64,000 nucleotides of DNA from Candidatus Woesebacteria bacterium GW2011_GWB1_33_38 (GTDB lineage: Bacteria > Patescibacteriota > Microgenomatia > UBA8517), in NCBI GenBank assembly GCA_000990005.1, contig LBPF01000006.1, forward strand, positions 33,615-97,614, given 5' to 3'. The notes under the pieces are model-generated. The model made no database searches and was not told where the DNA came from. It saw nothing but the letters and a program-made list of their open reading frames with translations. Below, one piece after another: positions 6,781 through 64,000 of the stretch. Every line of letters starts with the position of its first letter. Positions within the stretch are counted from its first letter, which is position 1. The translations under genes were made by a program, and so were the position numbers.

Positions 6781-8271
6781 ATGCAGACATATGCTTCAAC
6801 TAAGCAAAATCAATCTTGGTTTTCGTGGTTTTTACGAGGCGTTTTAATTTTGGGGTTTTTAATTTTAGTAGGCAGGCTTGTTGAACTTCAAATAATAAAG
6901 GGTAATTTTTATAGAAACTTATCTGAAGGAAATAGAATTGAAAGAATTAAAATACCAGCTCAAAGGGGAAAGATTTTGGCTCGTGGTGGGGAAGTTTTGA
7001 CAGGATCTGATTTTTCTCATATCACGGGTTATTTAGCAGAAACTAATGAAAACGAAGTGGGTAAAATTGATCCTAATTGTATAGAAAAAGGCCCTTTTAA
7101 ATTAGGTCAGATTGTTGGTCGAGGAGGATTACAAGAAAGATATAATTGTATTTTGTCTGGCATAGATGGAGAAGAACTAATTGAAGTTAATAGTCTGGGA
7201 GAAAAAATAAGAGAGATTGGTATTAAAAAGCCCGTCACAGGAAGCGACGTAAAAACTAATATTGATTACAATTTACAAAAAACTATTGCAAAAGAAATGG
7301 AAGGAAAACTTGGATCAGTTGTGGCAACAGACAAAAAAGGGCATGTTTTGTCTTTATTTTCATCTCCAACTTTTGATCCAAATGACATACAAAAGGCACT
7401 TACCGATTCACAATTACCGCTTTTTAATAGAGCAATTGGAGGCTTGTATCACCCTGGTTCTATCTTTAAGCCTTTAGTTGCAATTGTAGCCCTTGAAGAT
7501 AAAAAGATAGATGCCGATTTTAGGTTTAACGACACAGGGGTAGTAACAGTTGAATCAATTTATGGAAACTATTCATATACTAATTGGTACTATACCCAGT
7601 ATGGTGGAATGGAGGGGGAAGTTGATGTAACCCGTGCTCTTGCCAGATCAACTGACACTTTTTTTTATACGATCGGAGAGCGTGTGGGCATTAATTTACT
7701 TGTTGATTGGATGAAAAAATTTGGGTTAACAAAATTAACGGATATTGATTTAAATGGCGAAGTTTTATCTTTAATCCCTTCACCAGACTGGAAAGAAAAA
7801 GTAAAAAAAGAAAAATGGTTTTTGGGAAATACATATCACTTTTCAATTGGTCAGGGGGATTTGGCTACGACTCCAGTTGGAATCCATAGAGCAGATTTGA
7901 CTGTTTTAAATGGCGGTAAACTTTGTAATTTGAAAATTGTTGGAGATACGACTTGCATAAATTTAACGACGAAGTCGGTTACTTTAATTAAAAATTTAAA
8001 ATTGGTAGAAGAAGGAATGAAAATGGTGTGTCAGACTGGGGGTACTGGTTATACTTTTTTTGACTGGGAAACCAAACATAATGGTCAAAATGTACTTTGT
8101 AAAACAGGTACTGCAGAAACAAATGAGGATAATAAAACTCATGCTTGGTTTATTGCATCCTTAGATGATTTAGTCTTAACTGTAATGGTGGAGAAATCGG
8201 GAGAAGGTAGTAAAGTTGCTGGACCTATCGCTAGAAGTATTTTTGATGATTATTTTAAGGTCCGACCTTGA
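6781..8271 (+). CDS. mrdA: Penicillin-binding protein 2 (class B transpeptidase)
   Basis: N-terminal transmembrane segment, SIFK (SxxK), SxN-like and KTGTAE (KTG) motifs. Confidence 0.8.
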   Translation: MQTYASTKQNQSWFSWFLRGVLILGFLILVGRLVELQIIKGNFYRNLSEGNRIERIKIPAQRGKILARGGEVLTGSDFSHITGYLAETNENEVGKIDPNCIEKGPFKLGQIVGRGGLQERYNCILSGIDGEELIEVNSLGEKIREIGIKKPVTGSDVKTNIDYNLQKTIAKEMEGKLGSVVATDKKGHVLSLFSSPTFDPNDIQKALTDSQLPLFNRAIGGLYHPGSIFKPLVAIVALEDKKIDADFRFNDTGVVTVESIYGNYSYTNWYYTQYGGMEGEVDVTRALARSTDTFFYTIGERVGINLLVDWMKKFGLTKLTDIDLNGEVLSLIPSPDWKEKVKKEKWFLGNTYHFSIGQGDLATTPVGIHRADLTVLNGGKLCNLKIVGDTTCINLTTKSVTLIKNLKLVEEGMKMVCQTGGTGYTFFDWETKHNGQNVLCKTGTAETNEDNKTHAWFIASLDDLVLTVMVEKSGEGSKVAGPIARSIFDDYFKVRP

Positions 8272-8300
8272 AAGTTAAATCAGTATAAAGGTCGGACCTT
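8257..8300. repeat. Paired 13-bp palindromes AAGGTCCGACCTT…(17 nt)…AAGGTCGGACCTT, copy 1 of 3
   Basis: Seen directly; the first arm overlaps the mrdA stop codon (…aag gtc cga cct TGA); the element ends 11 nt before the dprA ATG. Confidence 0.8.
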
Positions 8301-8311
8301 GTTAGAAAAAT

Positions 8312-8872
8312 ATGAATTTGTATATTTTGGGGAAATTAAAAAAAGAAGATAAGAGGGCGGTGGCAATTGTGGGAACTAGACTACCTACTGAAAGAGGAAA
8401 AAAATTAACAGAAGAATTTGTTAAAGAACTTGTTAAAAACGAAATAACAATTGTTTCAGGGTTGGCGCGCGGAATTGACACAATTGCGCATCTTGCAGCA
8501 CTAAATTGTGGAGGCAGAACAATTGCAGTAATCGGCTCAGGTCTTAATGTTATTTATCCTCCTGAGAATAAAAAGCTGGCAGAGGAAATTTCAAAAAATG
8601 GAGCTTTGGTATCAGGTTTTCCATATGGCACAAAACCTGAGGGTAAAAACTTTCTGGCCAGAAATCAGTTGATTGTAAAATTATCAAAAGCAGTTTTAGT
8701 TATTGAAGGTAAAGCACGATCTGGTACAATCTCCACCGCTAATCATGCAGCTAACGATGGAGTAGAGGTCTTTGCAATCCCAGGCTCTGAAGCAACTGAT
8801 TATTTAATTGAAAATGGAGCAACACCTGTACAAAAGGCATTCGAGATAGTAGATTATTTAGATACATTATGA
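8312..8872 (+). CDS. dprA: DNA-processing protein DprA (Rossmann-fold core only)
   Basis: GLARGIDTIAH…AVIGSGLNVIYPPEN…FLARNQLIV…SGTISTANHAANDGVEVFAIPGS. Confidence 0.8.
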   Translation: MNLYILGKLKKEDKRAVAIVGTRLPTERGKKLTEEFVKELVKNEITIVSGLARGIDTIAHLAALNCGGRTIAVIGSGLNVIYPPENKKLAEEISKNGALVSGFPYGTKPEGKNFLARNQLIVKLSKAVLVIEGKARSGTISTANHAANDGVEVFAIPGSEATDYLIENGATPVQKAFEIVDYLDTL

Positions 8873-11545: not shown

Positions 11546-12232
11546 ATGAATAACTATATTTGGGATAAATTGTTTAAAAAATACGAACAAAGCGTAAAAA
11601 AAGATGAAAATGCAGATTTTGCATATGAAAGTTTAGTTAATACTTTATCCATATTAAGTTTATGTGACAACTTAGGTGTTGCCTTAGATTTAGGTTGTGG
11701 AGATGGAAGGTTTACAAAAGAACTTGAAGTAAGGTGCCAAAAAACCTTTGCAGTTGACCTATCAGATTCAATGTTAAAGCAAGCGAAAAAAGTTTGTCTT
11801 AACACAACTTTTTTAAAAGTAGATCTGGAAAATAAATTTCCAAAATTTAATACAAAGTTTGATTTAATTACCTGTAAGTTGGTGTTAATGTATCTAACAA
11901 ATATTGAAAATTTAGCTTGTGAGACATATAAGATACTTAACAAAAACGGCGCTTTAGTTGTGTCTGTAACGCACCCTATGAAATGGATGGATAAAACATC
12001 ATATCTTAAGGAGGATGTTGTCCCTGGTGAGATTGCAAATGATAAAAATCTTAAGGTGACCTTTAAATCTAGAACGATTCAAACTTATATTAATACCTTC
12101 ACAAAATATGGGTTTCATCTTGAGGTAGTTCTGGAAACTGGGGTTCCTGATTCGTTCGTGATAAAATACCCTGATTATTTAGCATTTCAAAAAAAGCCGT
12201 ACAGATTAAATTTAAAATTTGTTAAAAAATAA
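11546..12232 (+). CDS. Class I SAM-dependent methyltransferase
   Basis: Motif I LDLGCGDGRFT. Confidence 0.7.
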   Translation: MNNYIWDKLFKKYEQSVKKDENADFAYESLVNTLSILSLCDNLGVALDLGCGDGRFTKELEVRCQKTFAVDLSDSMLKQAKKVCLNTTFLKVDLENKFPKFNTKFDLITCKLVLMYLTNIENLACETYKILNKNGALVVSVTHPMKWMDKTSYLKEDVVPGEIANDKNLKVTFKSRTIQTYINTFTKYGFHLEVVLETGVPDSFVIKYPDYLAFQKKPYRLNLKFVKK

Positions 12233-12233
12233 G

Positions 12234-12329
12234 AAGCAGAGCTTGTTAGAATATCATAAGCAGAGCTTGTTAGAATATCATAAGCAGAGCTTGTTAGAAT
12301 ATCATAAGCAGAGCTTGTTAAAATATCAT
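12234..12329. repeat. Four tandem copies of the 24-bp unit AAGCAGAGCTTGTTAGAATATCAT (last copy TTAAAATATCAT) running into the ATG of the HTH-NUDIX gene
   Basis: Seen directly; this is the source of the listed artefactual 62-aa ORF 12219..12407 (QSLLEYHK x4). Confidence 0.9.
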
Positions 12330-13005
12330 GAAAGACTTTCATCCATTACAATTAAAAATACTTCAAAAATTGTTGTACTCAGATGGTTTAAGATACTCAA
12401 AGATTAAACCCACAAAAATAGAGGGTAGTAAATTTGCATTTCATTTAGATCAACTACTCAAACTTAAATTTGTTAACAAAATTGGAACTATCTATAAACT
12501 GACACTTCTTGGTAAAGAATTGGCAAACAGAATGGATTTGGGAGATAAGAAAATAGAAACTCAAGCTAAAGTTTCTGTTTTAATGGTTTGTATTAAAAAA
12601 GATAAAATACTTCTTTATACGAGATTAAAATCACCCTTCTTTGGATATCAAGGTTTTCCTACAGGGAAAGTTAAACATGGGGAAAATATATTAAAAGCAG
12701 CAAAAAGAGAATTAAAAGAAGAGACGGGTTTAATTGGTACCCCAAAACTATTTGCAGTTAGGCATTATAAAATTTATGATTTATCAAAGAATCTGTTGGA
12801 AGATAAAATCTTTTTTGCCTGCAAATTCATCGACCCTAAAGGGGTCTTAAGAAATAATCCAGAAGGCACATATAAATGGATTCATAAAAACAAAGTTTGG
12901 GACTATCTTAAAAAACCTGTAGATGAAGTCAAAGAAATTCTTGATTCTATTGAAAACAGCGAAATTACGTTTTTAGAAAAAGAATACTCTACCAGGGGAT
13001 TTTAA
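12328..13005 (+). CDS. NUDIX hydrolase with N-terminal winged-helix domain
   Basis: Nudix box GKVKHGENILKAAKRELKEETGL; an N-terminal 90 aa segment looks helix-turn-helix-like. Confidence 0.7.
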   Translation: MKDFHPLQLKILQKLLYSDGLRYSKIKPTKIEGSKFAFHLDQLLKLKFVNKIGTIYKLTLLGKELANRMDLGDKKIETQAKVSVLMVCIKKDKILLYTRLKSPFFGYQGFPTGKVKHGENILKAAKRELKEETGLIGTPKLFAVRHYKIYDLSKNLLEDKIFFACKFIDPKGVLRNNPEGTYKWIHKNKVWDYLKKPVDEVKEILDSIENSEITFLEKEYSTRGF

Positions 13006-16065: not shown

Positions 16066-16941
16066 ATGCAAAAGATTGTAGAGTGTGTGCCGAATTTTTC
16101 GGAAGGCAAGAATTTGAAAGTTATCAATGCGATTTTTGATGTGTCTCAAACTGGTAAGGTCAAATCCTTTGAACTTGAATATAACGTTTCTCACAATCGA
16201 ATGCTATTTACCATTGTAGGTTCTCCTGAGGATGTTCTAAATTCAGTTTTTGAATCTATAAAAATTGCAACTAAATTAATTGACATGAATAAGCACACTG
16301 GAGAACATCCCAGAATTGGTGCTACTGACGTCGTTCCATTTGTTCCTGTTTCGGGTGTTTCAATGGAAGAATGTGTAGAACTTAGTAATAAACTTGCTAA
16401 AAAAGTTGCAGATGAACTTAACTTACCTGTTTTTATGTATGAAGCCTCGGCCAAAAAAGAGGAATATAGAAATTTGGCAGATGTCAGAGTTGGTGAATAT
16501 GAAGGATTAAAGAAAAGTATGAGAAAGCCTGATTATGGTCCCTTAAAAACTCATCCAACAGCTGGAGCTATGGTAATTGGAGCTAGAAAATACTTAATTG
16601 CCTATAATGTTGATCTGGACACTACAGATGTTAATGTTGCAAAACAGATTGCTAAAAAGATAAGAGAAAAAGACGGGGGACTTAAGGCGGTTAAAGCATT
16701 AGGTTTTGAAGTTGATGGGATGGCTCAGGTCTCTATGAATTTAGTTGATTATGAAATTACAAACTTTGACGAGGCATATAGAGAAATTGAAAAAGAGGCT
16801 AAAAACTTAGGAGTTGGGATTAAAAATTCTGAAATATATGGTATGATTCCGCTTGAAGCTTTAGTCAGAGCAGTCAAAACTACCTTTAAAGGTACAATCT
16901 TTAGAAGTGATCAGATTTTAGAAAAAAAATTATGGGAGTAA
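16066..16941 (+). CDS. Glutamate formimidoyltransferase (FtcD N-terminal domain homolog)
   Basis: MQKIVECVPNFSEGKN N-terminus and the overall formiminotransferase fold signature. Confidence 0.75.
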   Translation: MQKIVECVPNFSEGKNLKVINAIFDVSQTGKVKSFELEYNVSHNRMLFTIVGSPEDVLNSVFESIKIATKLIDMNKHTGEHPRIGATDVVPFVPVSGVSMEECVELSNKLAKKVADELNLPVFMYEASAKKEEYRNLADVRVGEYEGLKKSMRKPDYGPLKTHPTAGAMVIGARKYLIAYNVDLDTTDVNVAKQIAKKIREKDGGLKAVKALGFEVDGMAQVSMNLVDYEITNFDEAYREIEKEAKNLGVGIKNSEIYGMIPLEALVRAVKTTFKGTIFRSDQILEKKLWE

Positions 16942-17468
16942 TTAATTCCAAAACCTTAAAACAATTTCAAAAAGAATTGGGGAGTAAAAATCCAACACCT
17001 GGAGGAGGAGTTGTGGCTGCACTTTCTGGAGCCTTTGCTGCATCTTTAATTGAAATGGTTTGTAATTTAACTCTTGGTAAAGAAAAATATGAAAAAAATA
17101 AAAAAGATGTTATTAAAATTCATAAAGATGTGCTTGAACTAAAGGAAAAACTAACTAAATTGGCTGAGGAGGATAAAAAAGCATATGATAAGGTGCTTAT
17201 AGCTTATAGACTACAGCCTGAAAACAAAAAACGAAAACAAGAAATAATAAAAGCACTAAGATATGCTATTGCAGTTCCAATGGAAGTTAGAAAAATTAGC
17301 CAAGAGGTTGAAAGATTAGCTTACAGGATTAGCAAGATTGGCAATAAAAACGCTCTAAGCGATGCCAAAACTGCAATTTATTTAGCCCATGCTTCTGGAA
17401 AATCTGCACTGGAGAATATTAAAATAAACAAAAAGTCACTGGCAGATCTATCAAGGTCCGACCTTTGA
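16932..17468 (+). CDS. Formiminotetrahydrofolate cyclodeaminase / methenyl-THF cyclohydrolase family (FtcD C-terminal domain homolog)
   Basis: PTPGGGVVAALSGAFAASL signature; a separate gene overlapping the upstream ORF by 10 nt. Confidence 0.7.
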   Translation: MGVINSKTLKQFQKELGSKNPTPGGGVVAALSGAFAASLIEMVCNLTLGKEKYEKNKKDVIKIHKDVLELKEKLTKLAEEDKKAYDKVLIAYRLQPENKKRKQEIIKALRYAIAVPMEVRKISQEVERLAYRISKIGNKNALSDAKTAIYLAHASGKSALENIKINKKSLADLSRSDL

Positions 17469-17496
17469 AGACAAATCTGTAATAAGGTCGGACCTT
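17453..17496. repeat. Paired 13-bp palindromes AAGGTCCGACCTT…(18 nt)…AAGGTCGGACCTT, copy 2 of 3
   Basis: The first arm overlaps the stop of the cyclodeaminase gene (…agg tcc gac ctt TGA); the second arm ends 14 nt before the -35 of the rpsB promoter. Confidence 0.8.
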
Positions 17497-17510: not shown

Positions 17511-17539
17511 TTGTCAACTTTCTTTTTCTAAAATATAAT
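17511..17539 (+). promoter_or_regulatory. Sigma-70-type promoter for rpsB-tsf-frr (TTGTCA-17 nt-TATAAT)
   Basis: Near-consensus hexamers with a 17-nt spacer, 80 nt upstream of rpsB. Confidence 0.55.
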
Positions 17540-17618
17540 ACTCCATAAGCACACAGATTTTAGTTTCCTGAAGCTTACGAAATCTGTGGAAGGTTAAGGA
17601 AACAAATAATTAATATAT

Positions 17619-19329: not shown

Positions 19330-20441
19330 TTTGGTCAATTTTGATTTTCTTTTTGGTTTTATCTATTTTAGTCATTGTTCACGAGTTTGGTCATTACATT
19401 GTAGCCAAGAAAAATGGAATTTTGGTTGAAGAGTTTGGATTTGGCTTGCCACCTAGAATCTTTGGTAAAAAAATAGGTGAGACACTTTGGTCTATAAACC
19501 TTTTACCTTTTGGTGGTTTTGTGAAACTTCATGGTGAATTAACTGATCCGCCCGAGGCGGACAAGTCTTTAAATAAACGGGCCTTTCTTTATAAATCAAA
19601 AAAGATAAAAATTGCCGTTATTGTTGCAGGAGTTGTCATGAATATTATTTTAGCAATTGTTGCTTTTGCTATTGTCTATTCTCATTATGGTATTCCAAAA
19701 GAACAGGGATTTGTTGAAGTTGTTGGGGTACTACCTGATTCACCAGCATCTATTTCCAAAATAGTAGTTGGGGAGAGAATATATGCAATCAATGGTAAAG
19801 AGGTTTCTAAAAAAGCTGAAGTGACAGACATTTCAAGTAAAGGAGGGAAGCATATTCTATTAGTTGGCACTAAAGATTCAGATTCCAAAGACTTACGAAA
19901 AGTTACAATAAACACAGAATTCAGTGAAGAAGACAAAAGATGGTATATGGGTTTTCTTCTAAGTTCAGAAAGTGTTTATTTTCCACCAGTCTGGCAAAGA
20001 CCGTTTTACGGTGTTTATTATGGAGTTAAAAATTCATTTCTAATTACAAAAGGGATCGTTACAAGTTTGGCTGGTATTTTTGTAAAAGAAACAAGAACTG
20101 AACTTGTTCAAGGGACCACGGGACCTGTTGGACTTTTAGCACTTGTTGATAATATTAGAAAACAGGGAATTTATCCATTAATTGATTTCATGGGTTTAAT
20201 ATCTATAAATTTGGCAGTTATAAATATTTTACCTTTCCCAGCACTTGATGGGGGAAGACTTCTTTTTGTGTTAATAGAAAAAGTAATAGGTAAAAAAGTA
20301 ATTCCCAAAGTGGAGGCCGCTATTCATTCTGTTGGTATGATAATACTTTTGGGATTAATTCTGGCAATAACCATCAAAGATATAAGAGGTCTAATCTCCG
20401 CTGGCTCCATTTCAGGCTTTCTTGAGAACATGATGAAGTGA
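19326..20441 (+). CDS. rseP: RIP zinc metalloprotease RseP
   Basis: HEFGHY in TM1, a PDZ segment and a C-terminal LDGG motif. Confidence 0.8.
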   Translation: MIWSILIFFLVLSILVIVHEFGHYIVAKKNGILVEEFGFGLPPRIFGKKIGETLWSINLLPFGGFVKLHGELTDPPEADKSLNKRAFLYKSKKIKIAVIVAGVVMNIILAIVAFAIVYSHYGIPKEQGFVEVVGVLPDSPASISKIVVGERIYAINGKEVSKKAEVTDISSKGGKHILLVGTKDSDSKDLRKVTINTEFSEEDKRWYMGFLLSSESVYFPPVWQRPFYGVYYGVKNSFLITKGIVTSLAGIFVKETRTELVQGTTGPVGLLALVDNIRKQGIYPLIDFMGLISINLAVINILPFPALDGGRLLFVLIEKVIGKKVIPKVEAAIHSVGMIILLGLILAITIKDIRGLISAGSISGFLENMMK

Positions 20442-27942: not shown

Positions 27943-29277
27943 ATGACAGAAGGGGACATTAAAGTTGTGGGTTTGTCTTCAAGTAAAAAGGGCGGTCAAA
28001 CAAACTGGAAGATAATTGGTGCAATTATCGGGATTATTGTTTTGGCTCTAGGTATTGTTGCTGGTATCCTTCTCGTTAAACAGCAACAGGATATTAGGGA
28101 AAAGGCTGAAATTGTTTCTTGTGTTGACCCAACTGTTGAACAGTGTCCTGTAGCTGGTAAACCTGATGTTTTAAGAAATTGCCATCCGCCTCAATCTGAC
28201 AACTCCCCCGTTGAAAGTATTTGCAATGAAGAAGGAAAAATCTCTTTTTGTGGCAATAAGAATTATTGTTGCCCATCAGTAGGTGGATCTTGGACAACTG
28301 ATATGAGCGTTTGTACTTTAGATGTATTTCCTAAAGTAGATTTAATTCCCGCGGAAGCCGAAGTTTCTTGTGCTCAAGGTTTTACGGATTCTTTTGATAC
28401 CATCGATTTGACCAAATGGAACAAAGAAGGTGATGTGAATGTAAATGGTGGAGTACTGGAAGTTAAAAGGGATGAGCCAGGTACGACAAGTTATGATGGT
28501 TTATATACAAAGAATTCCTTTACAGATGATTTTACAGTCGAAGTTGATGTACCTGAAGTTAATAAATCAGGTGATGGTGGTGGTGGTGCTACAATCTTAT
28601 TTACTACAGATACAACAGAGGGTTTGTCGGTTGTTCGACAAAGAAAGAATAACAGGGGCGGTGCTGGTGTTTGGCAAATTACTTCAAGATTGAATGTAGG
28701 TACTAACTTTGATAATGGATTGAAAACATTAGCACAAGGGGCAGTTTCATTTAAAGTAGAACGAAAAGCGGGAAAATTTAAGATTTTTTACAAAACTGGA
28801 GCTAATTATATACTTCTTGATGAACCAACATTAACATTAACAAAGCCAATTCAAAAAATTCATTTATCTGCTATGAACACAGAATATATCGCTTCTGAAT
28901 ATACACTTGTTAAATATGATAACTTTAAAATTTCTTGTTCTGGTAATATTGCTACAACGACTCCAACAGCTACAGCAAGTGCAACTAGCACACCTACTTC
29001 TAGTCCAACACGAACACCTACAACAACACCAACTGCAACAGGGGTCGGAACAGCAACACCAACAGCAACTGGGCAGAGGACTGCAACAGCCACGGCAACA
29101 GTTACTTCAACATCAACATCATCAACAAGTGCGACAAAAACTCCAACAGCTAGAGCCACCGCAACATCAACGTCATCGTCAGCGCCTATTCCAGTAACTG
29201 GAATGAACTTACCAACAATGATTGGTGCAGGTTTTGGTATTCTTATGATTCTGATTTCCCTTGCCCTAGCTTTATAA
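27943..29277 (+). CDS. Cell-surface protein: N-terminal signal anchor, Cys-rich and beta-rich domains, Thr/Pro/Ala/Ser linker, C-terminal hydrophobic anchor
   Basis: The TTTPTATASATSTPTSSPTRTPTT… low-complexity tract is followed by PIPVTGMNLPTMIGAGFGILMILISLALAL. Confidence 0.6.
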   Translation: MTEGDIKVVGLSSSKKGGQTNWKIIGAIIGIIVLALGIVAGILLVKQQQDIREKAEIVSCVDPTVEQCPVAGKPDVLRNCHPPQSDNSPVESICNEEGKISFCGNKNYCCPSVGGSWTTDMSVCTLDVFPKVDLIPAEAEVSCAQGFTDSFDTIDLTKWNKEGDVNVNGGVLEVKRDEPGTTSYDGLYTKNSFTDDFTVEVDVPEVNKSGDGGGGATILFTTDTTEGLSVVRQRKNNRGGAGVWQITSRLNVGTNFDNGLKTLAQGAVSFKVERKAGKFKIFYKTGANYILLDEPTLTLTKPIQKIHLSAMNTEYIASEYTLVKYDNFKISCSGNIATTTPTATASATSTPTSSPTRTPTTTPTATGVGTATPTATGQRTATATATVTSTSTSSTSATKTPTARATATSTSSSAPIPVTGMNLPTMIGAGFGILMILISLALAL

Positions 29278-42150: not shown

Positions 42151-42192
42151 AAACAAAAAGTCCCGTTTGTCAAAACAAACGAGATGTTCTAT

Positions 42193-42220
42193 AAAAACAA
42201 AAAGACCGCTAACCGCGGTC
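42193..42220 (-). terminator. Rho-independent terminator (GACCGC-GGTTA-GCGGTC followed by TTTTTGTTTTT)
   Basis: Perfect 6-bp GC-rich stem plus a U-tract on the minus strand. Confidence 0.6.
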
Positions 42221-42352
42221 AAAATATTTTTTATTTCCATCTCTACTTTGCGGTGACAATGGTTGACTAATTTTTACAGTTTGTCTTCTGTCTAGCATTT
42301 TGGCTAGCTCCTCCCGAATCGTGACTTCGGTAAAACGGATTTGTTAAAATGT
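42209..42352 (-). ncRNA. Candidate small structured RNA (about 160 nt from promoter to terminator), possibly encoding a 29-aa peptide (42209..42298)
   Basis: Bounded by a consensus promoter and a terminator; internal hairpins (CCGAA-GTCACGA-TTCGG; GACAA…TTGTC); a GGGAGGAG motif 11 nt upstream of an ATG. Confidence 0.4.
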
Positions 42353-42359
42353 ATTTTGT

Positions 42360-42387
42360 ATTATATCAAGAAATTCAGCCCTGTCAA
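42360..42387 (-). promoter_or_regulatory. Consensus sigma-70 promoter (TTGACA-16 nt-TATAAT)
   Basis: Both hexamers are perfect on the minus strand. Confidence 0.6.
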
Positions 42388-42401: not shown

Positions 42402-42426
42402 AAGGTCTGACCTTACAAGGTCGGGG
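42402..42426. repeat. Palindrome element copy 3 of 3 (AAGGTCTGACCTT-ACA-AGGTCGGGG)
   Basis: Overlaps the stop of minus-strand gene 42413..43237 and sits 15 nt upstream of the -35 of the small-RNA promoter. Confidence 0.7.
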
Positions 42427-43237
42427 CAAAGATACTTCGTAAAGAAAAAATGTCATTTTCTGCTTTTCCTGTAACAATTATTTCTTGTCCAATTTCCAAA
42501 TCTTTAACATTTGGGCCAATCCACTTTTTAGGTAGTATTATATCGTTTATTTTTGTTTTTGATATAGTTTCAATTACAATTTTCTTGGCTTCAAATTTGT
42601 TTTCTTCCATTGGAGAAGTTATTAAAATTCGTTTGGTTTTCAAAACTTTGTTTCCATTAATAAATCCCATTGCTACTATGTAATCTCCAATTGCCAAATC
42701 TGTTGATTTGACTTCCACATTTTTTTTCAAAATGTTTATATATTTTGTATCTTTTTCTGTTGAAGCCTGCTTAATCTCACCTTGAGGATCTTTAATTTGA
42801 ATTGTTTCAGCTGTTATATCTGTAACCGTCCCAACATATGAGGTAGCACCTTTTTCTGGAAACTCAGATGAAAATACTAAGTTTATTTTTGTATTATTAA
42901 TTTTAACTTCACTTAAACCTGATGGAAAAGTAACAGTAATTTCAAAAGAACCATCTTCTTTTGCTTTGCTTAAAAAATCTTTTTCTTCAGTTATTACTAA
43001 AACATTTGAATTGGGATTGGTTAATCCCGTGAGTGTGTATTCTTCATCTATTATTACATCAAAATTGGTTAGTTTATCTAAGGATACAAATAGATTTGTT
43101 TTTAGTACAGGAGTGGGTCTGGAAGTTAAAATAGGTACATCTCTTTTTATATTTTTAATAAGTCTCCAGCTTCCAAAAGCAAAAATTAGACCAATTGAAA
43201 TACCTGCAAATATGGCAAGAATTGTTTCTTTTCTCAT
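42413..43237 (-). CDS. Hypothetical membrane-anchored protein (N-terminal transmembrane segment, beta-rich ectodomain)
   Basis: ORF only. Confidence 0.45.
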   Translation of the reverse strand: MRKETILAIFAGISIGLIFAFGSWRLIKNIKRDVPILTSRPTPVLKTNLFVSLDKLTNFDVIIDEEYTLTGLTNPNSNVLVITEEKDFLSKAKEDGSFEITVTFPSGLSEVKINNTKINLVFSSEFPEKGATSYVGTVTDITAETIQIKDPQGEIKQASTEKDTKYINILKKNVEVKSTDLAIGDYIVAMGFINGNKVLKTKRILITSPMEENKFEAKKIVIETISKTKINDIILPKKWIGPNVKDLEIGQEIIVTGKAENDIFSLRSIFAPTL

Positions 43238-46444: not shown

Positions 46445-46674
46445 AATTCATGTATTATCTCACGACCAAACCCGGATTTAAAGAATCTTTCTAAATTTCT
46501 CGCCTCAAACCTATTTTTTGTTAATTCTACGTGAACTAATTGAAATGGAAGTTTATTTTTTGTAGTTCGGACGTTACCGACTTCGTGATCTTTTAGTCTT
46601 TTATTTAAGTCTTGTGTTTGACCTTTATAAAAAGCTTTATTATTTAATTTTAATATGTAGTTATAGTACATTAT
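46399..46674 (-). CDS. GIY-YIG nuclease-family protein (UPF0213/YhbQ-like); 3' end reads 46 nt into tRNA-Leu
   Basis: MYYNYILKLNNKAFYKGQTQDLNKRLKDHE…ARNLERFFKSGFGREII; the listed ORF is trimmed because its first 39 codons derive from a tRNA-fragment copy. Confidence 0.65.
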   Translation of the reverse strand: MMYYNYILKLNNKAFYKGQTQDLNKRLKDHEVGNVRTTKNKLPFQLVHVELTKNRFEARNLERFFKSGFGREIIHELAGWRNGRRTGLKNL

Positions 46675-46680
46675 GTCTGC

Positions 46681-46722
46681 CATTCCCTGCCTGCCGGCAG
46701 GCAGGCGCCACCCAGCCAATGA
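46681..46722. repeat. Duplicated 5' segment of tRNA-Leu (positions 1-23) interrupted by the GC-rich palindrome CCTGCCTGCCGGCAGGCAGG
   Basis: GTCTGCCATTCC[…]GCCACCCAGCCAAT versus the tRNA 5' end GTCTGCCATTCCGCCACCCAGCCAAT at 46423-46448. Confidence 0.8.
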
Positions 46723-59746: not shown

Positions 59747-60475
59747 CTATCTAACTTCGTAGAAAAGAGTAACTGTTACCTCAATTTCAGTTTCCCCTGG
59801 AGTAATGTTAGCTTCCGTTACGGGTTCGGAACCTGAAATTGCTTTGTCATACATTAAAATTGGTCTTGGTTCAAATCCTCCAGATTCACTAACATTAATT
59901 ATTTTACCTAGAGTAATTCCTGCTGATTTTGCTAAACCTTCCGCTTTTGTTTTTGCTTTTTCTACAGCTTCATCTCGAGCTTTACTAGTTAACTCTTCCT
60001 TAGTTTTGTCATTTACCTCAAAACTAATGTTTCCGATTATATTTGCACCAATCGAAGTAGCAACTGTTAAAACTTCATTAACTACTTCAAAATCAGTTAT
60101 TTTTATTTCATAACTGACAGATACTCTGTAACCATTTATTTTGTAAGAGCTATTTTGATAATCAAATTCAGGATATACGTTATAATTTATCGTTTTAATG
60201 TTCTTTTCATCAATTCCTAATTTTTTCAATTCATCAGTTAGTTTTTTTGATTTTGTGTTGACATTGTTTTGAACTTGTTTTAAGGTTGGACCTTGTTCTT
60301 CGATTCCAATTGTAACTTTGGCTATGTCAGGAGTAACCGCAACTTTTCCTGTTTCAGTTACCGTTAAAGGTTCGCCCTTTTGTTGAGAAAGGACTGAGAA
60401 TGGAATACTTGGCCCCCATTTGGAGTAAACAAAGAGAAGTACAAAAAATAAAAATACGCTTCCAATTTTCTTCAT
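59747..60475 (-). CDS. SIMPL/DUF541-domain secreted protein
   Basis: Signal-like N-terminus and SIMPL pattern. Confidence 0.6.
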   Translation of the reverse strand: MKKIGSVFLFFVLLFVYSKWGPSIPFSVLSQQKGEPLTVTETGKVAVTPDIAKVTIGIEEQGPTLKQVQNNVNTKSKKLTDELKKLGIDEKNIKTINYNVYPEFDYQNSSYKINGYRVSVSYEIKITDFEVVNEVLTVATSIGANIIGNISFEVNDKTKEELTSKARDEAVEKAKTKAEGLAKSAGITLGKIINVSESGGFEPRPILMYDKAISGSEPVTEANITPGETEIEVTVTLFYEVR

Positions 60476-60536
60476 AATATTAACTATATCAGAAAAATTT
60501 GACAAAAAGAAGTAAGAAGAGGTAAAATACCCCCAA

Positions 60537-63725: not shown

Positions 63726-64000
63726 TTAACGAATTGCTGAAGAGACTGCTTTTACTACTCCTTTTTCAAATGGGCTGGGGATGATTTTTTTAGCTGTTGG
63801 GGTTTTAACTAATTTAGAAAGATTAATAGCAGCAGAAATTAACATCTTATTTGTTATCTTTTTAACTTTGTTATCAAGTGCACCTCTAAAAATTCCCGGA
63901 AAAGCTAGGACATTATTAATCTGATTGTTAAAATCACTTCTTCCTGTTGCAATAACTTTTGCTCCACCTAATTTTGCTTCATCAGGCATTATTTCTGGAG
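63726..64000 (-). CDS. NAD(P)-dependent malic enzyme, C-terminal part (gene continues beyond window)
   Basis: VIATGRSDFNNQINNVLAFPGIFRGALD matches the malic enzyme NAD-binding domain. Confidence 0.7.
   Translation of the reverse strand, partial: PEIMPDEAKLGGAKVIATGRSDFNNQINNVLAFPGIFRGALDNKVKKITNKMLISAAINLSKLVKTPTAKKIIPSPFEKGVVKAVSSAIR

Follow-up and report, generated by a model that had tools for sequence, protein, structure and literature searches.

The closest described counterparts of the element reported here are the REP/REPIN-RAYT systems of Proteobacteria (E. coli REP/BIME, Pseudomonas REPINs), with which it shares dispersed short palindromes, inverted pairs that form a larger hairpin, and a Y1 HUH transposase gene bracketed by the repeats. 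Proteobacterial REPs usually lie just after ORFs, and the three copies in the Woesebacteria DNA described below are likewise at gene 3' ends. REPs within genes have been described for established REP families as well (Di Nocera et al. 2013, PMC3733652). Like Rickettsia palindromic elements (RPE), they are found in housekeeping proteins, including uvrA, ligase and tRNA synthetases, either singly or as dimers, and are missing from homologs (PMC3733652). IS200/IS605 elements and their miniature derivatives provide a third point of comparison; membership of the Y1_Tnp superfamily, subterminal hairpins as recognition elements, and the lack of an apparent target-site duplication are features common to them and to the present system.

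Here we describe a palindrome, AAGGTC-N-GACCTT, that occurs in a 64,000-nucleotide stretch of the genome of Candidatus Woesebacteria bacterium GW2011_GWB1_33_38 (hereafter the window). We consider it about 85% probable that this palindrome is a REP/REPIN-type repeat, spread across the CPR (Patescibacteria) and tied to a RAYT-like transposase, rather than a binding site for a regulator. This reading is supported by four lines of evidence: a phylum-wide family, inverted arms, flanking of transposase genes, and frequent in-frame insertion. The same four support a suggestion of the first-pass annotation of this DNA, which had listed a small repetitive REP-like element among its options. The palindromes form a new family within a class of element that is already known: REPs located inside genes, and REP dimers, have been described in other phyla (PMC3733652). 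We found no relevant publication on the 13-mer itself, or on REP/RAYT systems in CPR/Patescibacteria.

Three copies of a paired palindrome at gene ends

The exact 13-mer AAGGTCNGACCTT (AAGGTC-N-GACCTT) occurred five times in the window (positions 8257-8269, 8288-8300, 17453-17465, 17484-17496 and 42402-42414) against an expected count of ~0.1, and six matches were obtained when up to one mismatch was allowed, compared with 0.11 ± 0.31 in shuffled sequences. The five exact cores fell at three loci, confirming the recurrence at three gene ends reported in the first-pass annotation. Two of the loci are 44-nt doublets. Copy 1 (8257-8300), located between mrdA and dprA, consists of the arm AAGGTCCGACCTT (8257-8269), an 18-nt loop GAAAGTTAAATCAGTATA, and the arm AAGGTCGGACCTT (8288-8300). 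Copy 2 (17453-17496) has the same arms, AAGGTCCGACCTT and AAGGTCGGACCTT, around the 18-nt loop TGAAGACAAATCTGTAAT; the arm-to-arm spacing, previously given as 17-18 nt, is therefore 18 nt in both of these doublets. Copy 3 (42402-42424), described earlier as two adjacent 13-mers, contains one full arm (AAGGTCTGACCTT, 42402-42414) followed by the dinucleotide AC and a truncated second arm of only 8 nt (AAGGTCGG, 42417-42424). On the minus strand, copy 3 is followed by AACAGAAGCTAAA, which is similar to the flank of copy 2.

Because the central base is C in arm 1 and G in arm 2 of copies 1 and 2, the arms of each doublet are exact reverse complements. Both doublets were predicted to fold into a hairpin of 13-14 bp (-23 and -24.6 kcal/mol; z -5.6 and -5.0), while no stable structure was predicted for copy 3 (42402-42424). 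A scan of Rfam that also covered copy 1 returned only tRNAs at the gathering threshold, and matches below threshold near copies 2 and 3 were at chance level; we consequently rejected a known RNA family as the identity of the palindrome copies. A one-mismatch single arm, AAGGTTGGACCTT, at 60282-60294 is a possible relic: it lies within a SIMPL-family ORF (59747-60505, minus strand), where it is read in frame as QGPTL. The same site is present in one other locus (L212), and taken alone the arm is weak evidence.

Each copy meets the end of an ORF. Arm 1 of copy 1 supplies the final four codons (KVRP) of the mrdA ORF (PBP2; 6781-8271, plus strand, Pfam match) and also the T of its TGA stop codon (8269-8271), whose other two bases come from the start of the loop. 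The C-terminus of this ORF reads YFKVRP*, where element-free homologs end in YFKN*, YFKNE* or YFGAK*. The FTCD_C ORF (formiminotransferase-cyclodeaminase C-domain; 16932-17468, plus strand, Pfam match) takes its tail SRSDL from copy 2, and the C-terminus of a 274-aa ORF on the minus strand (42413-43237, no Pfam match), ..APTL*, reads the truncated arm of copy 3. An overlap of the first arm with the upstream stop codon had been claimed for every copy. It was found for mrdA (1 nt) and for the minus-strand ORF, whose TAA shares 2 nt with the full arm of copy 3, but the FTCD_C TGA (17466-17468) directly abuts arm 1 of copy 2, inside the loop. At all three copies the upstream ORF enters the element and terminates at a stop codon that the element itself supplies; the AT-rich loop of the window type carries stops in all three forward frames.

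The proposed proximity of the second arm to a start or promoter was also borne out. The ATG of dprA (8312-8872, plus strand, Pfam match) lies 11 nt past copy 1; a promoter-like site before rpsB (TTGTCA-17-TATAAT, 17511-17539, plus strand, 11/12 match) lies 14 nt past copy 2; and a sigma-70-like promoter (TTGACA-16-TGnTATAAT, 42387-42360, minus strand, 12/12 match) lies 14 nt past copy 3. Both promoter matches are context, the one before rpsB standing outside the repeat.

All three copies are preceded by a stop codon and followed by a start or a strong promoter, and the two hairpins are stable (z about -5). Both features would suit a host-selected RNA element at gene ends that separates the upstream gene from the start or promoter that follows, either by terminating or insulating transcription with no U-tract involved or by stabilizing 3' ends; REPs elsewhere lie mostly downstream of ORFs, where they are presumed to function at the RNA level (PMC3733652). 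We regard this explanation as unlikely. A GC-containing hairpin right after a stop codon is indeed what an intrinsic (Rho-independent) terminator offers, but the CPR element has no U-tract, copies of it occur inside ORFs, and its stem sequence is fixed phylum-wide, whereas termination requires no fixed stem sequence. No U-tract terminator was predicted at copies 1, 2 or 3, in agreement with the earlier view that the element is not a classical intrinsic terminator; that candidate was rejected for lack of a T-run. Copy 3, moreover, does not fold.

A further candidate was an operator bound by a dimeric transcription factor such as a GntR/FadR-type protein (GGTC-N-GACC core), paired sites allowing cooperative binding. 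Each 13-mer has perfect dyad symmetry, GGTCNGACC is contained in FadR/LldR-type sites described in the literature, and the copies are near promoters or starts. However, the genes that flank them are functionally unrelated (mrdA/dprA, FTCD/rpsB, a hypothetical gene and a small RNA, and dozens of others elsewhere), and we judge this candidate highly improbable in light of this and of the family-wide evidence below.

Comparison of the three loci with related genomes

Copy 1 was absent from the mrdA-dprA junctions of three relatives (L126, L127 and L128). In L127 and L128 the dprA ATG overlaps or abuts the mrdA stop codon with no element present; in L126 the position of copy 1 is occupied by a different, unrelated sequence rather than by a clean empty site. 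The copy-1-free relatives are the closer ones (82-87% mrdA identity), and element-derived mrdA C-termini have a patchy distribution among homologs. Similarly, 118 of 120 FTCD_C homologs end in ..INKxSLxKL* without an element-encoded tail, and the FTCD_C-rpsB junction of L129 lacks copy 2, which on this comparison is lineage-specific. Given the overlapping or abutting mrdA and dprA genes of relatives, the patchy mrdA tails and the tailless FTCD_C homologs, all three window copies are, by sequence comparison, insertions, each at the very 3' end of a gene. No empty/filled pair with exact boundaries, and no transposition event, was recovered among the relatives compared.

An orthologous copy 1 was present in L129, L130 and L131 (four genomes including that of the window), even though the downstream gene differs there. 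Across these four genomes the 44 nt of copy 1 contain 2-5 differences, versus 9-10 in 30 nt of adjacent mrdA coding sequence (~30%). This conservation hints at some constraint, which a purely selfish relic does not explain. A copy that stays nearly unchanged beside a different gene would also be compatible with an RNA element selected by the host; against this, the closer relatives lack copy 1 and have overlapping mrdA and dprA genes, and copy 2 is confined to its lineage. Such a role could hold for some copies at most, as a secondary exaptation.

A hairpin family spread across Patescibacteria

A scan for the exact doublet identified at least 119 public loci, nearly all of them in CPR MAGs with GC contents of 33 to 58%; the fractions derived from this sample are estimates. 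Among the matches listed, the doublet was almost confined to Patescibacteria, and 269 of 297 cores were in doublets. One Lloydbacteria MAG (MHLS01) contributed at least 15 doublets to this sample. In the same set of listed matches, the central bases of the two arms were complementary in 121 of 136 arm pairs, 31 copies had copy-specific complementary stem extensions of 5-11 bp, and the mean extension was 2.1 bp compared with 0.33 bp expected. Complementarity of the central bases favors a hairpin over a pair of independent binding sites, and neither it nor the copy-specific stem extensions would be expected of independent operators.

The core differs in sequence from proteobacterial REPs, and each CPR core forms a near-perfect dyad with a single free base at its center. 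Tags of the GTAG or CGTC type are missing beside the stem: among the matches listed, GTAG/CTAC and CGTC/GACG were each found near 1-4 of 126 doublets, below the ~9 expected, and the only flank preference was for C at -1 and G at +1. Viral contigs scanned for the doublet yielded no matches, and carriage by phages was rejected on that basis. Tandem arrays of the motif were seen, among the matches listed, only in a Verrucomicrobia MAG. A TIGR/CRISPR-like array was rejected as well, the CPR copies being isolated doublets.

In-frame copies inside proteins

Extragenic location, a usual criterion for REPs, does not describe this family: among the matches listed, 71 of 126 CPR doublets (~56%) were within ORFs of at least 150 aa, and the window copies overlap ORF ends. 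This is a far larger intragenic share than that of proteobacterial REPs. The host ORFs include those for a P-type ATPase, UvrA, TopA, LeuRS, SMC, trigger factor, LigA, LepA, TsaD and GatB. The in-frame doublets add 9-14 aa that are missing from homologs, and in different genomes the same protein carries inserts at different sites. The core itself keeps two of three reading frames open in either orientation, and these encode the peptides RSDL or G-x-T-L/F. A motif at the protein level was rejected, as copies occur on both strands and in both the RSDL and the GxTL frame, and the central base co-varies.

In-frame palindromic inserts in proteins of replication, repair and translation (here UvrA, LigA, TopA, SMC and LeuRS) recall intragenic REPs and Rickettsia RPE. 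The CPR elements are shorter (29-56 nt, compared with 100-150 bp for RPE-1) and belong to another sequence family and another host phylum, and those in the window, unlike intragenic REPs and RPE, touch only the last codons of genes.

The intragenic copies bear on both functional alternatives. Transcription termination would be harmful within the coding sequences that hold 56% of the CPR doublets listed. The dimeric-regulator operator proposed in the first-pass annotation is contradicted by the location of more than half of the listed copies inside ORFs, by their unrelated neighbors, and by the arm complementarity that implies a hairpin. That annotation had itself named two signs that would speak against it, occurrence inside genes and absence from close relatives with conserved synteny. 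Both were observed, which refutes a regulatory reading and leaves a repeat element standing.

Association with a RAYT-like transposase

A protein of 215-245 aa with HUH and Tyr motifs was encoded in 14 of 119 loci among the matches listed. It matched Pfam Y1_Tnp with scores of 27.7-31.2 bits, above the cutoff of 23; the REP-associated tyrosine transposase was the sole NCBIfam match (E 5e-10, 39.5 bits), below the 80-bit equivalog cutoff. In an alignment of these proteins H85-F86-H87 was nearly invariant and Y145 invariant. A PDB sequence search with the transposase returned no match; with this result and the sub-cutoff NCBIfam score, the CPR enzyme is only distantly related to proteobacterial RAYT. 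At eight loci (L030, L113, L057, L084, L125, L138, L164 and L188) the transposase gene was flanked by AAGGTC-N-GACCTT or one-mismatch variants, and the flanking doublets of L030 have reverse-complementary loops.

An independent set of 80 loci was retrieved by the RAYT-like protein alone, with both flanks available in 66. The two flanks of the transposase gene shared an 11-mer in 59 of these 66; where orientation was visible, the sharing was only as reverse complement in 17 loci, only direct in 18, and mixed in 21. A palindromic AGG-N3-7-CCT occurred within 300 nt of the RAYT-like gene in 58 of 80 loci, versus 13 of 89 control segments, and the density of the exact motif was 37-fold higher near the gene than far away. 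To judge by these sequences, a wider set of palindromes, xxAAGG-nn-N-nn-CCTTxx, which includes the AAGGTC-N-GACCTT family, brackets RAYT-like Y1 (HUH) transposase genes, an arrangement that also speaks against an operator. In contrast to IS200/IS605, the dispersed unit in CPR is the hairpin alone. The transposase gene, where seen, is single and bracketed by repeats and does not belong to a multi-copy IS, and no tnpB was noticed beside the transposase genes inspected.

The window's own genome encodes a RAYT-like gene ~2.1 kb beyond the right end of the window, with CAACAAGGTGACACCTTGTTG on both sides. This flank is a sister palindrome, AAGGTG-A-CACCTT, and not AAGGTC-N-GACCTT, so the enzyme behind the window's copies may have been lost. 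A GIY-YIG nuclease was considered as an alternative mobilizer because one such gene lies between two doublets (L098); the genome is rich in copies and the arrangement did not recur, and we judged it coincidental.

These observations also address a role in natural transformation. The DNA uptake sequences of Neisseria often form inverted pairs after genes, an arrangement that the inverted pairs at gene ends resemble; CPR bacteria have kept competence genes, and dprA adjoins copy 1. Known uptake sequences, though, occur about once per kb, whereas the window has 5 cores in 64 kb and its relatives have none to a few per 20 kb. The motif is itself palindromic, its architecture is common to many sequence variants, each flanking a transposase gene, and the same sites in close relatives lack it. 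An uptake sequence is thus extremely improbable.

Discussion

Together, the results point to a REP-type element whose core is AAGGTC-N-GACCTT, two inverted cores around a short spacer making up a REPIN-like doublet that would form one long hairpin. By analogy with E. coli TnpA-REP and with IS200/IS605, the RAYT-like enzyme would most likely recognize this hairpin in single-stranded DNA and disperse it. Copies persist at sites that can accommodate them, be it between genes, at the 3' ends of genes or in frame within proteins. Effects on the expression of neighbors are plausible, as with E. coli REPs, but would be secondary. They might include protection of 3' ends by the hairpin, attenuated read-through toward the dprA and rpsB genes or the small-RNA promoter, and stalling of ribosomes at a stop codon within, or just after, the first stem arm.

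A more far-reaching interpretation is that the xxAAGG..N..CCTTxx hairpins and the RAYT-like enzyme are an ancient, vertically kept and domesticated system of Patescibacteria, some copies of which are under selection. The copy at the mrdA stop, nearly unchanged while adjacent mrdA coding sequence differs by ~30%, would be an example. We hold this to be doubtful. If true, such copies would have acquired host functions: coupling control of the upstream gene to translation by way of a stop codon in or at the edge of the stem, insulation from the promoter that follows, or modification of replication and repair proteins by RSDL / G-x-T-L peptides.

The REP-type reading has practical consequences for work on CPR organisms. 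The elements lengthen essential proteins by RSDL / GxTL-type peptides of 9-14 residues and change C-termini and stop codons. Such changes carry over into gene calling, structure prediction, and the alignment of proteins and of phylogenetic markers. Perfect hairpins of this type can also break or misjoin short-read assemblies. For the biology of the phylum, CPR/Patescibacteria genomes are ~1 Mb and regarded as streamlined, yet they host a phylum-wide hairpin family together with a matching tyrosine transposase. The REP-RAYT relationship would thereby reach into one of the very deep lineages of Bacteria, and the finding provides a defined pair of sequence and enzyme that is testable in the few cultivable Saccharibacteria.

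A paired palindrome at three gene ends

Exact matches to AAGGTC-N-GACCTT, the 13-nt palindrome termed here the core, start at positions 8257, 8288, 17453, 17484 and 42402 of the 64-kb window, with one additional match at 60282 carrying a single mismatch; shuffled sequence yields 0.11 matches at ≤1 mismatch. The first-pass annotation had described three copies, each composed of two self-complementary 13-mers that were spaced 17-18 nt apart in the first two. The pairing stands for copies 1 (8257-8300) and 2 (17453-17496), which are 44 nt each and consist of a 13-mer with a central C, 18 nt in both cases and never 17, and a 13-mer with a central G, so that the arms are exact reverse complements. 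It does not extend to copy 3 (42402-42424), where a full arm is followed by AC and only 8 nt of the second arm. The interiors of copies 1 and 2 are related (repeat family D9, 80% identity), and as RNA both are predicted to form hairpins with 13-14 bp stems, at -23 kcal/mol (z = -5.6) for copy 1 and -24.6 kcal/mol (z = -5.0) for copy 2. Copy 3 folded no better than shuffles.

ORFs upstream of all three copies read into the element. The arm meets their stop codons in different frames, as noted earlier, because stop codons are present in every forward frame of the window-type loop: the C-termini are ..YFKVRP-TGA for mrdA at copy 1, ..LSRSDL-TGA for the cyclodeaminase gene at copy 2, and ..APTL-TAA for the minus-strand ORF 42413-43237 at copy 3. 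The reported closeness of starts and promoters was also borne out, with the dprA ATG lying 11 nt downstream of copy 1 and promoter matches starting 14 nt past copy 2 (17511-17539, 11/12) and copy 3 (42387-42360, minus strand, 12/12). No terminator-like site was predicted at any of the three copies, in agreement with the view that the element is not a classical terminator.

The palindrome is a repeat family of Patescibacteria

The window has a GC content of 33%. It matches contigs of Rifle groundwater metagenomes, as well as GCA_000990105.1, with full identity, and its nearest named mrdA homologs are in Candidatus Woesebacteria (CPR/Patescibacteria). A scan for pairs of cores separated by 0-30 nt, covering a single genome from each species, returned at least 119 loci, nearly all from Patescibacteria (many Parcubacteria lineages, Saccharibacteria, Woese-, Beckwith- and Moranbacteria); with 24 fixed bases, we estimate that ~0.1 match would arise by chance across the entire collection. 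The sequence is therefore a repeat family. Among the matches listed, GC of doublet-bearing loci ranged from 33 to 58%, 269 of 297 cores sat in doublets, and loops of 3-30 nt (modes 11 and 14) were frequently palindromic themselves. The sole flanking preference in this set was for a C preceding the core and a G following it.

The element has hairpin geometry. Among the matches listed, the central bases of the two arms were complementary in 121 of 136 pairs (25% expected), and in 31 copies a further 5-11 complementary bases, specific to the copy, lengthened the stem outward. Such features are those of an inverted doublet that forms a hairpin rather than of two independent protein sites, and so speak against the operator for a dimeric regulator that was among the readings first offered.

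The 13-mer also occurs outside the CPR. One Verrucomicrobia MAG (L073 438-472, L077 3040-3170, L090 3590-3730) carries it in tandem direct arrays of AAAAGGTCTGACCTTTT with 9-nt spacers and a period of 22, mixed with a variant ending GACGATAT; these adjoin GC-rich DNA, and their layout is unlike that of CPR doublets. Identical 13-mer doublets with 9-nt spacers, flanked by related half-sites, occur in gut Bacteroidales (Bacteroides/Phocaeicola; L009 3968-4002, L067 2758-2792, L076 6325-6359) and may represent an independent repeat family or horizontal spread.

Copies are insertions, many of them within genes

Occurrence inside genes, which the first-pass annotation had named as counting against its reading, is common: among the matches listed, 71 of 126 CPR doublets lie within ORFs ≥150 aa long, which read through them in frame. 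Host proteins identified by Pfam include P-type ATPase, UvrA, TopA, LeuRS, SMC, trigger factor, LigA, LepA, TsaD and GatB. BLASTP against homologs in other loci revealed clean inserts of 9-14 aa that the homologs lack, at positions that vary between genomes within one protein; LigA has at least four distinct sites, and TopA of L017 and L119 contains an insert at a place where window TopA has none. The core is translated in two always-open frames, as RSDL or G-x-T-L/F, and the third (KV-x-P, or a stop if the centre is T) was used by just 11 of 142 arms among the matches listed. Both of these frames and both strands are used, and the central base covaries, which places the signal at the DNA level.

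The two complete window copies differ in history. The element-derived ending YFKVRP*, or one of its decayed forms KVQP, KVRH and KVLP, is patchily distributed across 120 mrdA homologs, interleaved with YFKN*, YFKNE* and YFGAK*. Copy 1 is missing from L126 (mrdA 87% identical to that of the window), from L127 (82%), where the stop codon of mrdA and the ATG of dprA overlap, and from L128 (82%), where a short spacer alone separates the two genes. An orthologous copy is present in L129, L130 and L131 (76-78%), with arms identical except for one mismatch in L131. Its loops differ from the window at 2-3 of 18 positions, against 9-10 in the adjoining 30 nt of mrdA, and these orthologs are more alike than window copies 1 and 2 are to each other. 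Copy 1 is thus an old and slow-changing insertion. Its slow change, which points to either constraint or repeated conversion, is the sole observation that a purely selfish reading leaves unexplained.

Among cyclodeaminase homologs, 118 of 120 end in ..INKxSLxKL*, the SRSDL* ending is confined to the window type and one other, and no element was found at the copy 2 junction in L129; this makes copy 2 a recent, lineage-specific insertion. Absence from relatives, which the first-pass annotation likewise named as counting against its reading, is thus seen for both copies.

At L131 19478-19490, a single exact core overlaps the stop of a folD-like gene (..AAGGTCCGACCTTGA), giving it the same KVRP* ending as window mrdA; the element has therefore supplied C-termini and stops more than once.

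Association with a RAYT-like transposase

The repeat is physically associated with genes for Y1 transposases. In 14 of the at least 119 loci, a protein of 215-245 aa is immediately flanked by the palindrome. These proteins match Pfam Y1_Tnp above cutoff, have REP-associated tyrosine transposase as their sole NCBIfam match (E = 5e-10, under the equivalog cutoff), and conserve in alignment an HUH motif and a tyrosine; we call them RAYT-like. The L030 gene lies between two doublets whose loops are reverse complements of each other, and that of L113 has the palindrome on either side. At L057 three single cores precede the gene and one follows it; L084 and L125 are likewise flanked, and L100, L088 and L091 carry close variants of the palindrome.

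As an independent test set, we used 80 metagenome loci found by protein alignment alone. An 11-mer was common to both flanks in 59 of the 66 with both flanks available, and a palindromic AGG-N3-7-CCT lay within 300 nt of the gene in 58 of 80, versus 13 of 89 control segments. Flank palindromes vary on one architecture (for example CCAAGGTCGGACCTTGG, TCCAAGGACAGTCCTTGGA, TACAAGGTTCAACCTTGTA, ATCAAGGCGGCGCCTTGAT and GTGCGAAGGGTGGCCCTTCGCAC); the window motif itself (≤1 mismatch) was near 6 of the 80 genes, at a density across these loci of 0.34 per kb near the gene versus 0.009 per kb far away. Such flanking of the gene by palindromes is what defines a REP-RAYT system, and here each palindrome variant goes with a different enzyme lineage.

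The window's own genome encodes such an enzyme: a 215-aa RAYT-like Y1_Tnp gene (L212 6636-7283) lies ~2.1 kb past window position 64000, on a locus whose gyrA is 100% nucleotide-identical to window gyrA. A perfect 21-nt palindrome, CAACAAGGTGACACCTTGTTG, sits on both sides of it; this is a sister class of the window motif, differing in an inner base pair, and does not occur within the 64-kb window.

RAYT-like genes L100 3078-4007, L097 6241-6972 and L110 3108-3782 contain element-derived peptides (RSDL, GPTL, KVRP-SDIR-RSDL), either within a variable loop or as extensions of the N-terminus, so the presumed mobiliser itself receives insertions of the repeats.

Other features of the window

The perfect sigma-70-type promoter at 42387-42360 heads a small-RNA candidate (42161-42387, minus strand) upstream of tRNA-His, with two terminator-like hairpins bearing T-runs (42220-42204 and 42184-42161) just before the tRNA. 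This arrangement implies a putative unannotated small RNA of ~140-190 nt; the candidate had no Rfam match. The rpsB leader, ~80 nt from promoter to start (17540-17618), is conserved in L131 (~19920-19993) despite a different upstream gene, which suggests an S2-type leader structure; it too had no Rfam match. Between a methyltransferase ORF and a NUDIX ORF, a 24-nt unit, TTGTTAGAATATCATAAGCAGAGC, is present four times in tandem (12219-12338, family D3), and the array extends into the beginning of the NUDIX ORF. A perfect 20-nt GC-rich palindrome, CCTGCCTGCCGGCAGGCAGG, at 46686-46705 adjoins a small GIY-YIG nuclease-like ORF (~46453-46674, minus strand) and tRNA-Leu. Inside ORF 27943-29277, a Thr/Ala/Pro-rich stretch is encoded by degenerate repeats with a 6-36-nt period (28950-29170, D1/D2), in which ACA, GCA and CCA codons are frequent.

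A new family of REP-type element

IS200/IS605 TnpA and E. coli TnpA-REP provide the established basis for inferring transposase action. By analogy, the enzyme would recognise the folded single strand and then move or copy the doublet. By analogy with E. coli REPs, some copies may shield 3' ends, reduce read-through or stall ribosomes at termination, given that the first stem arm contains the stop codon or is immediately followed by it.

Di Nocera et al. (2013, PMC3733652) described REPs that form dimers and lie immediately downstream of ORFs, as well as REPs carried in frame within the genes for UvrA, ligase and tRNA synthetases, among them RPE-4 and RPE-6 of Rickettsia. CPR lineages go unmentioned in a phylogenomic survey of Y1 HUH proteins (PMC6006769), and our literature search found no report of the 13-mer or of REP/RAYT in CPR. 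Unlike the two described REP superfamilies, the present family lacks GTAG and CGTC tags, and its enzyme is a distant relative of described RAYTs. Of the readings first offered, a small repetitive REP-like element agrees best with a phylum-wide hairpin repeat, inserted copies and palindromes beside Y1 transposase genes. The AAGGTC-N-GACCTT hairpins are a newly found family of an already known type of element, and one that is useful for CPR genomics.
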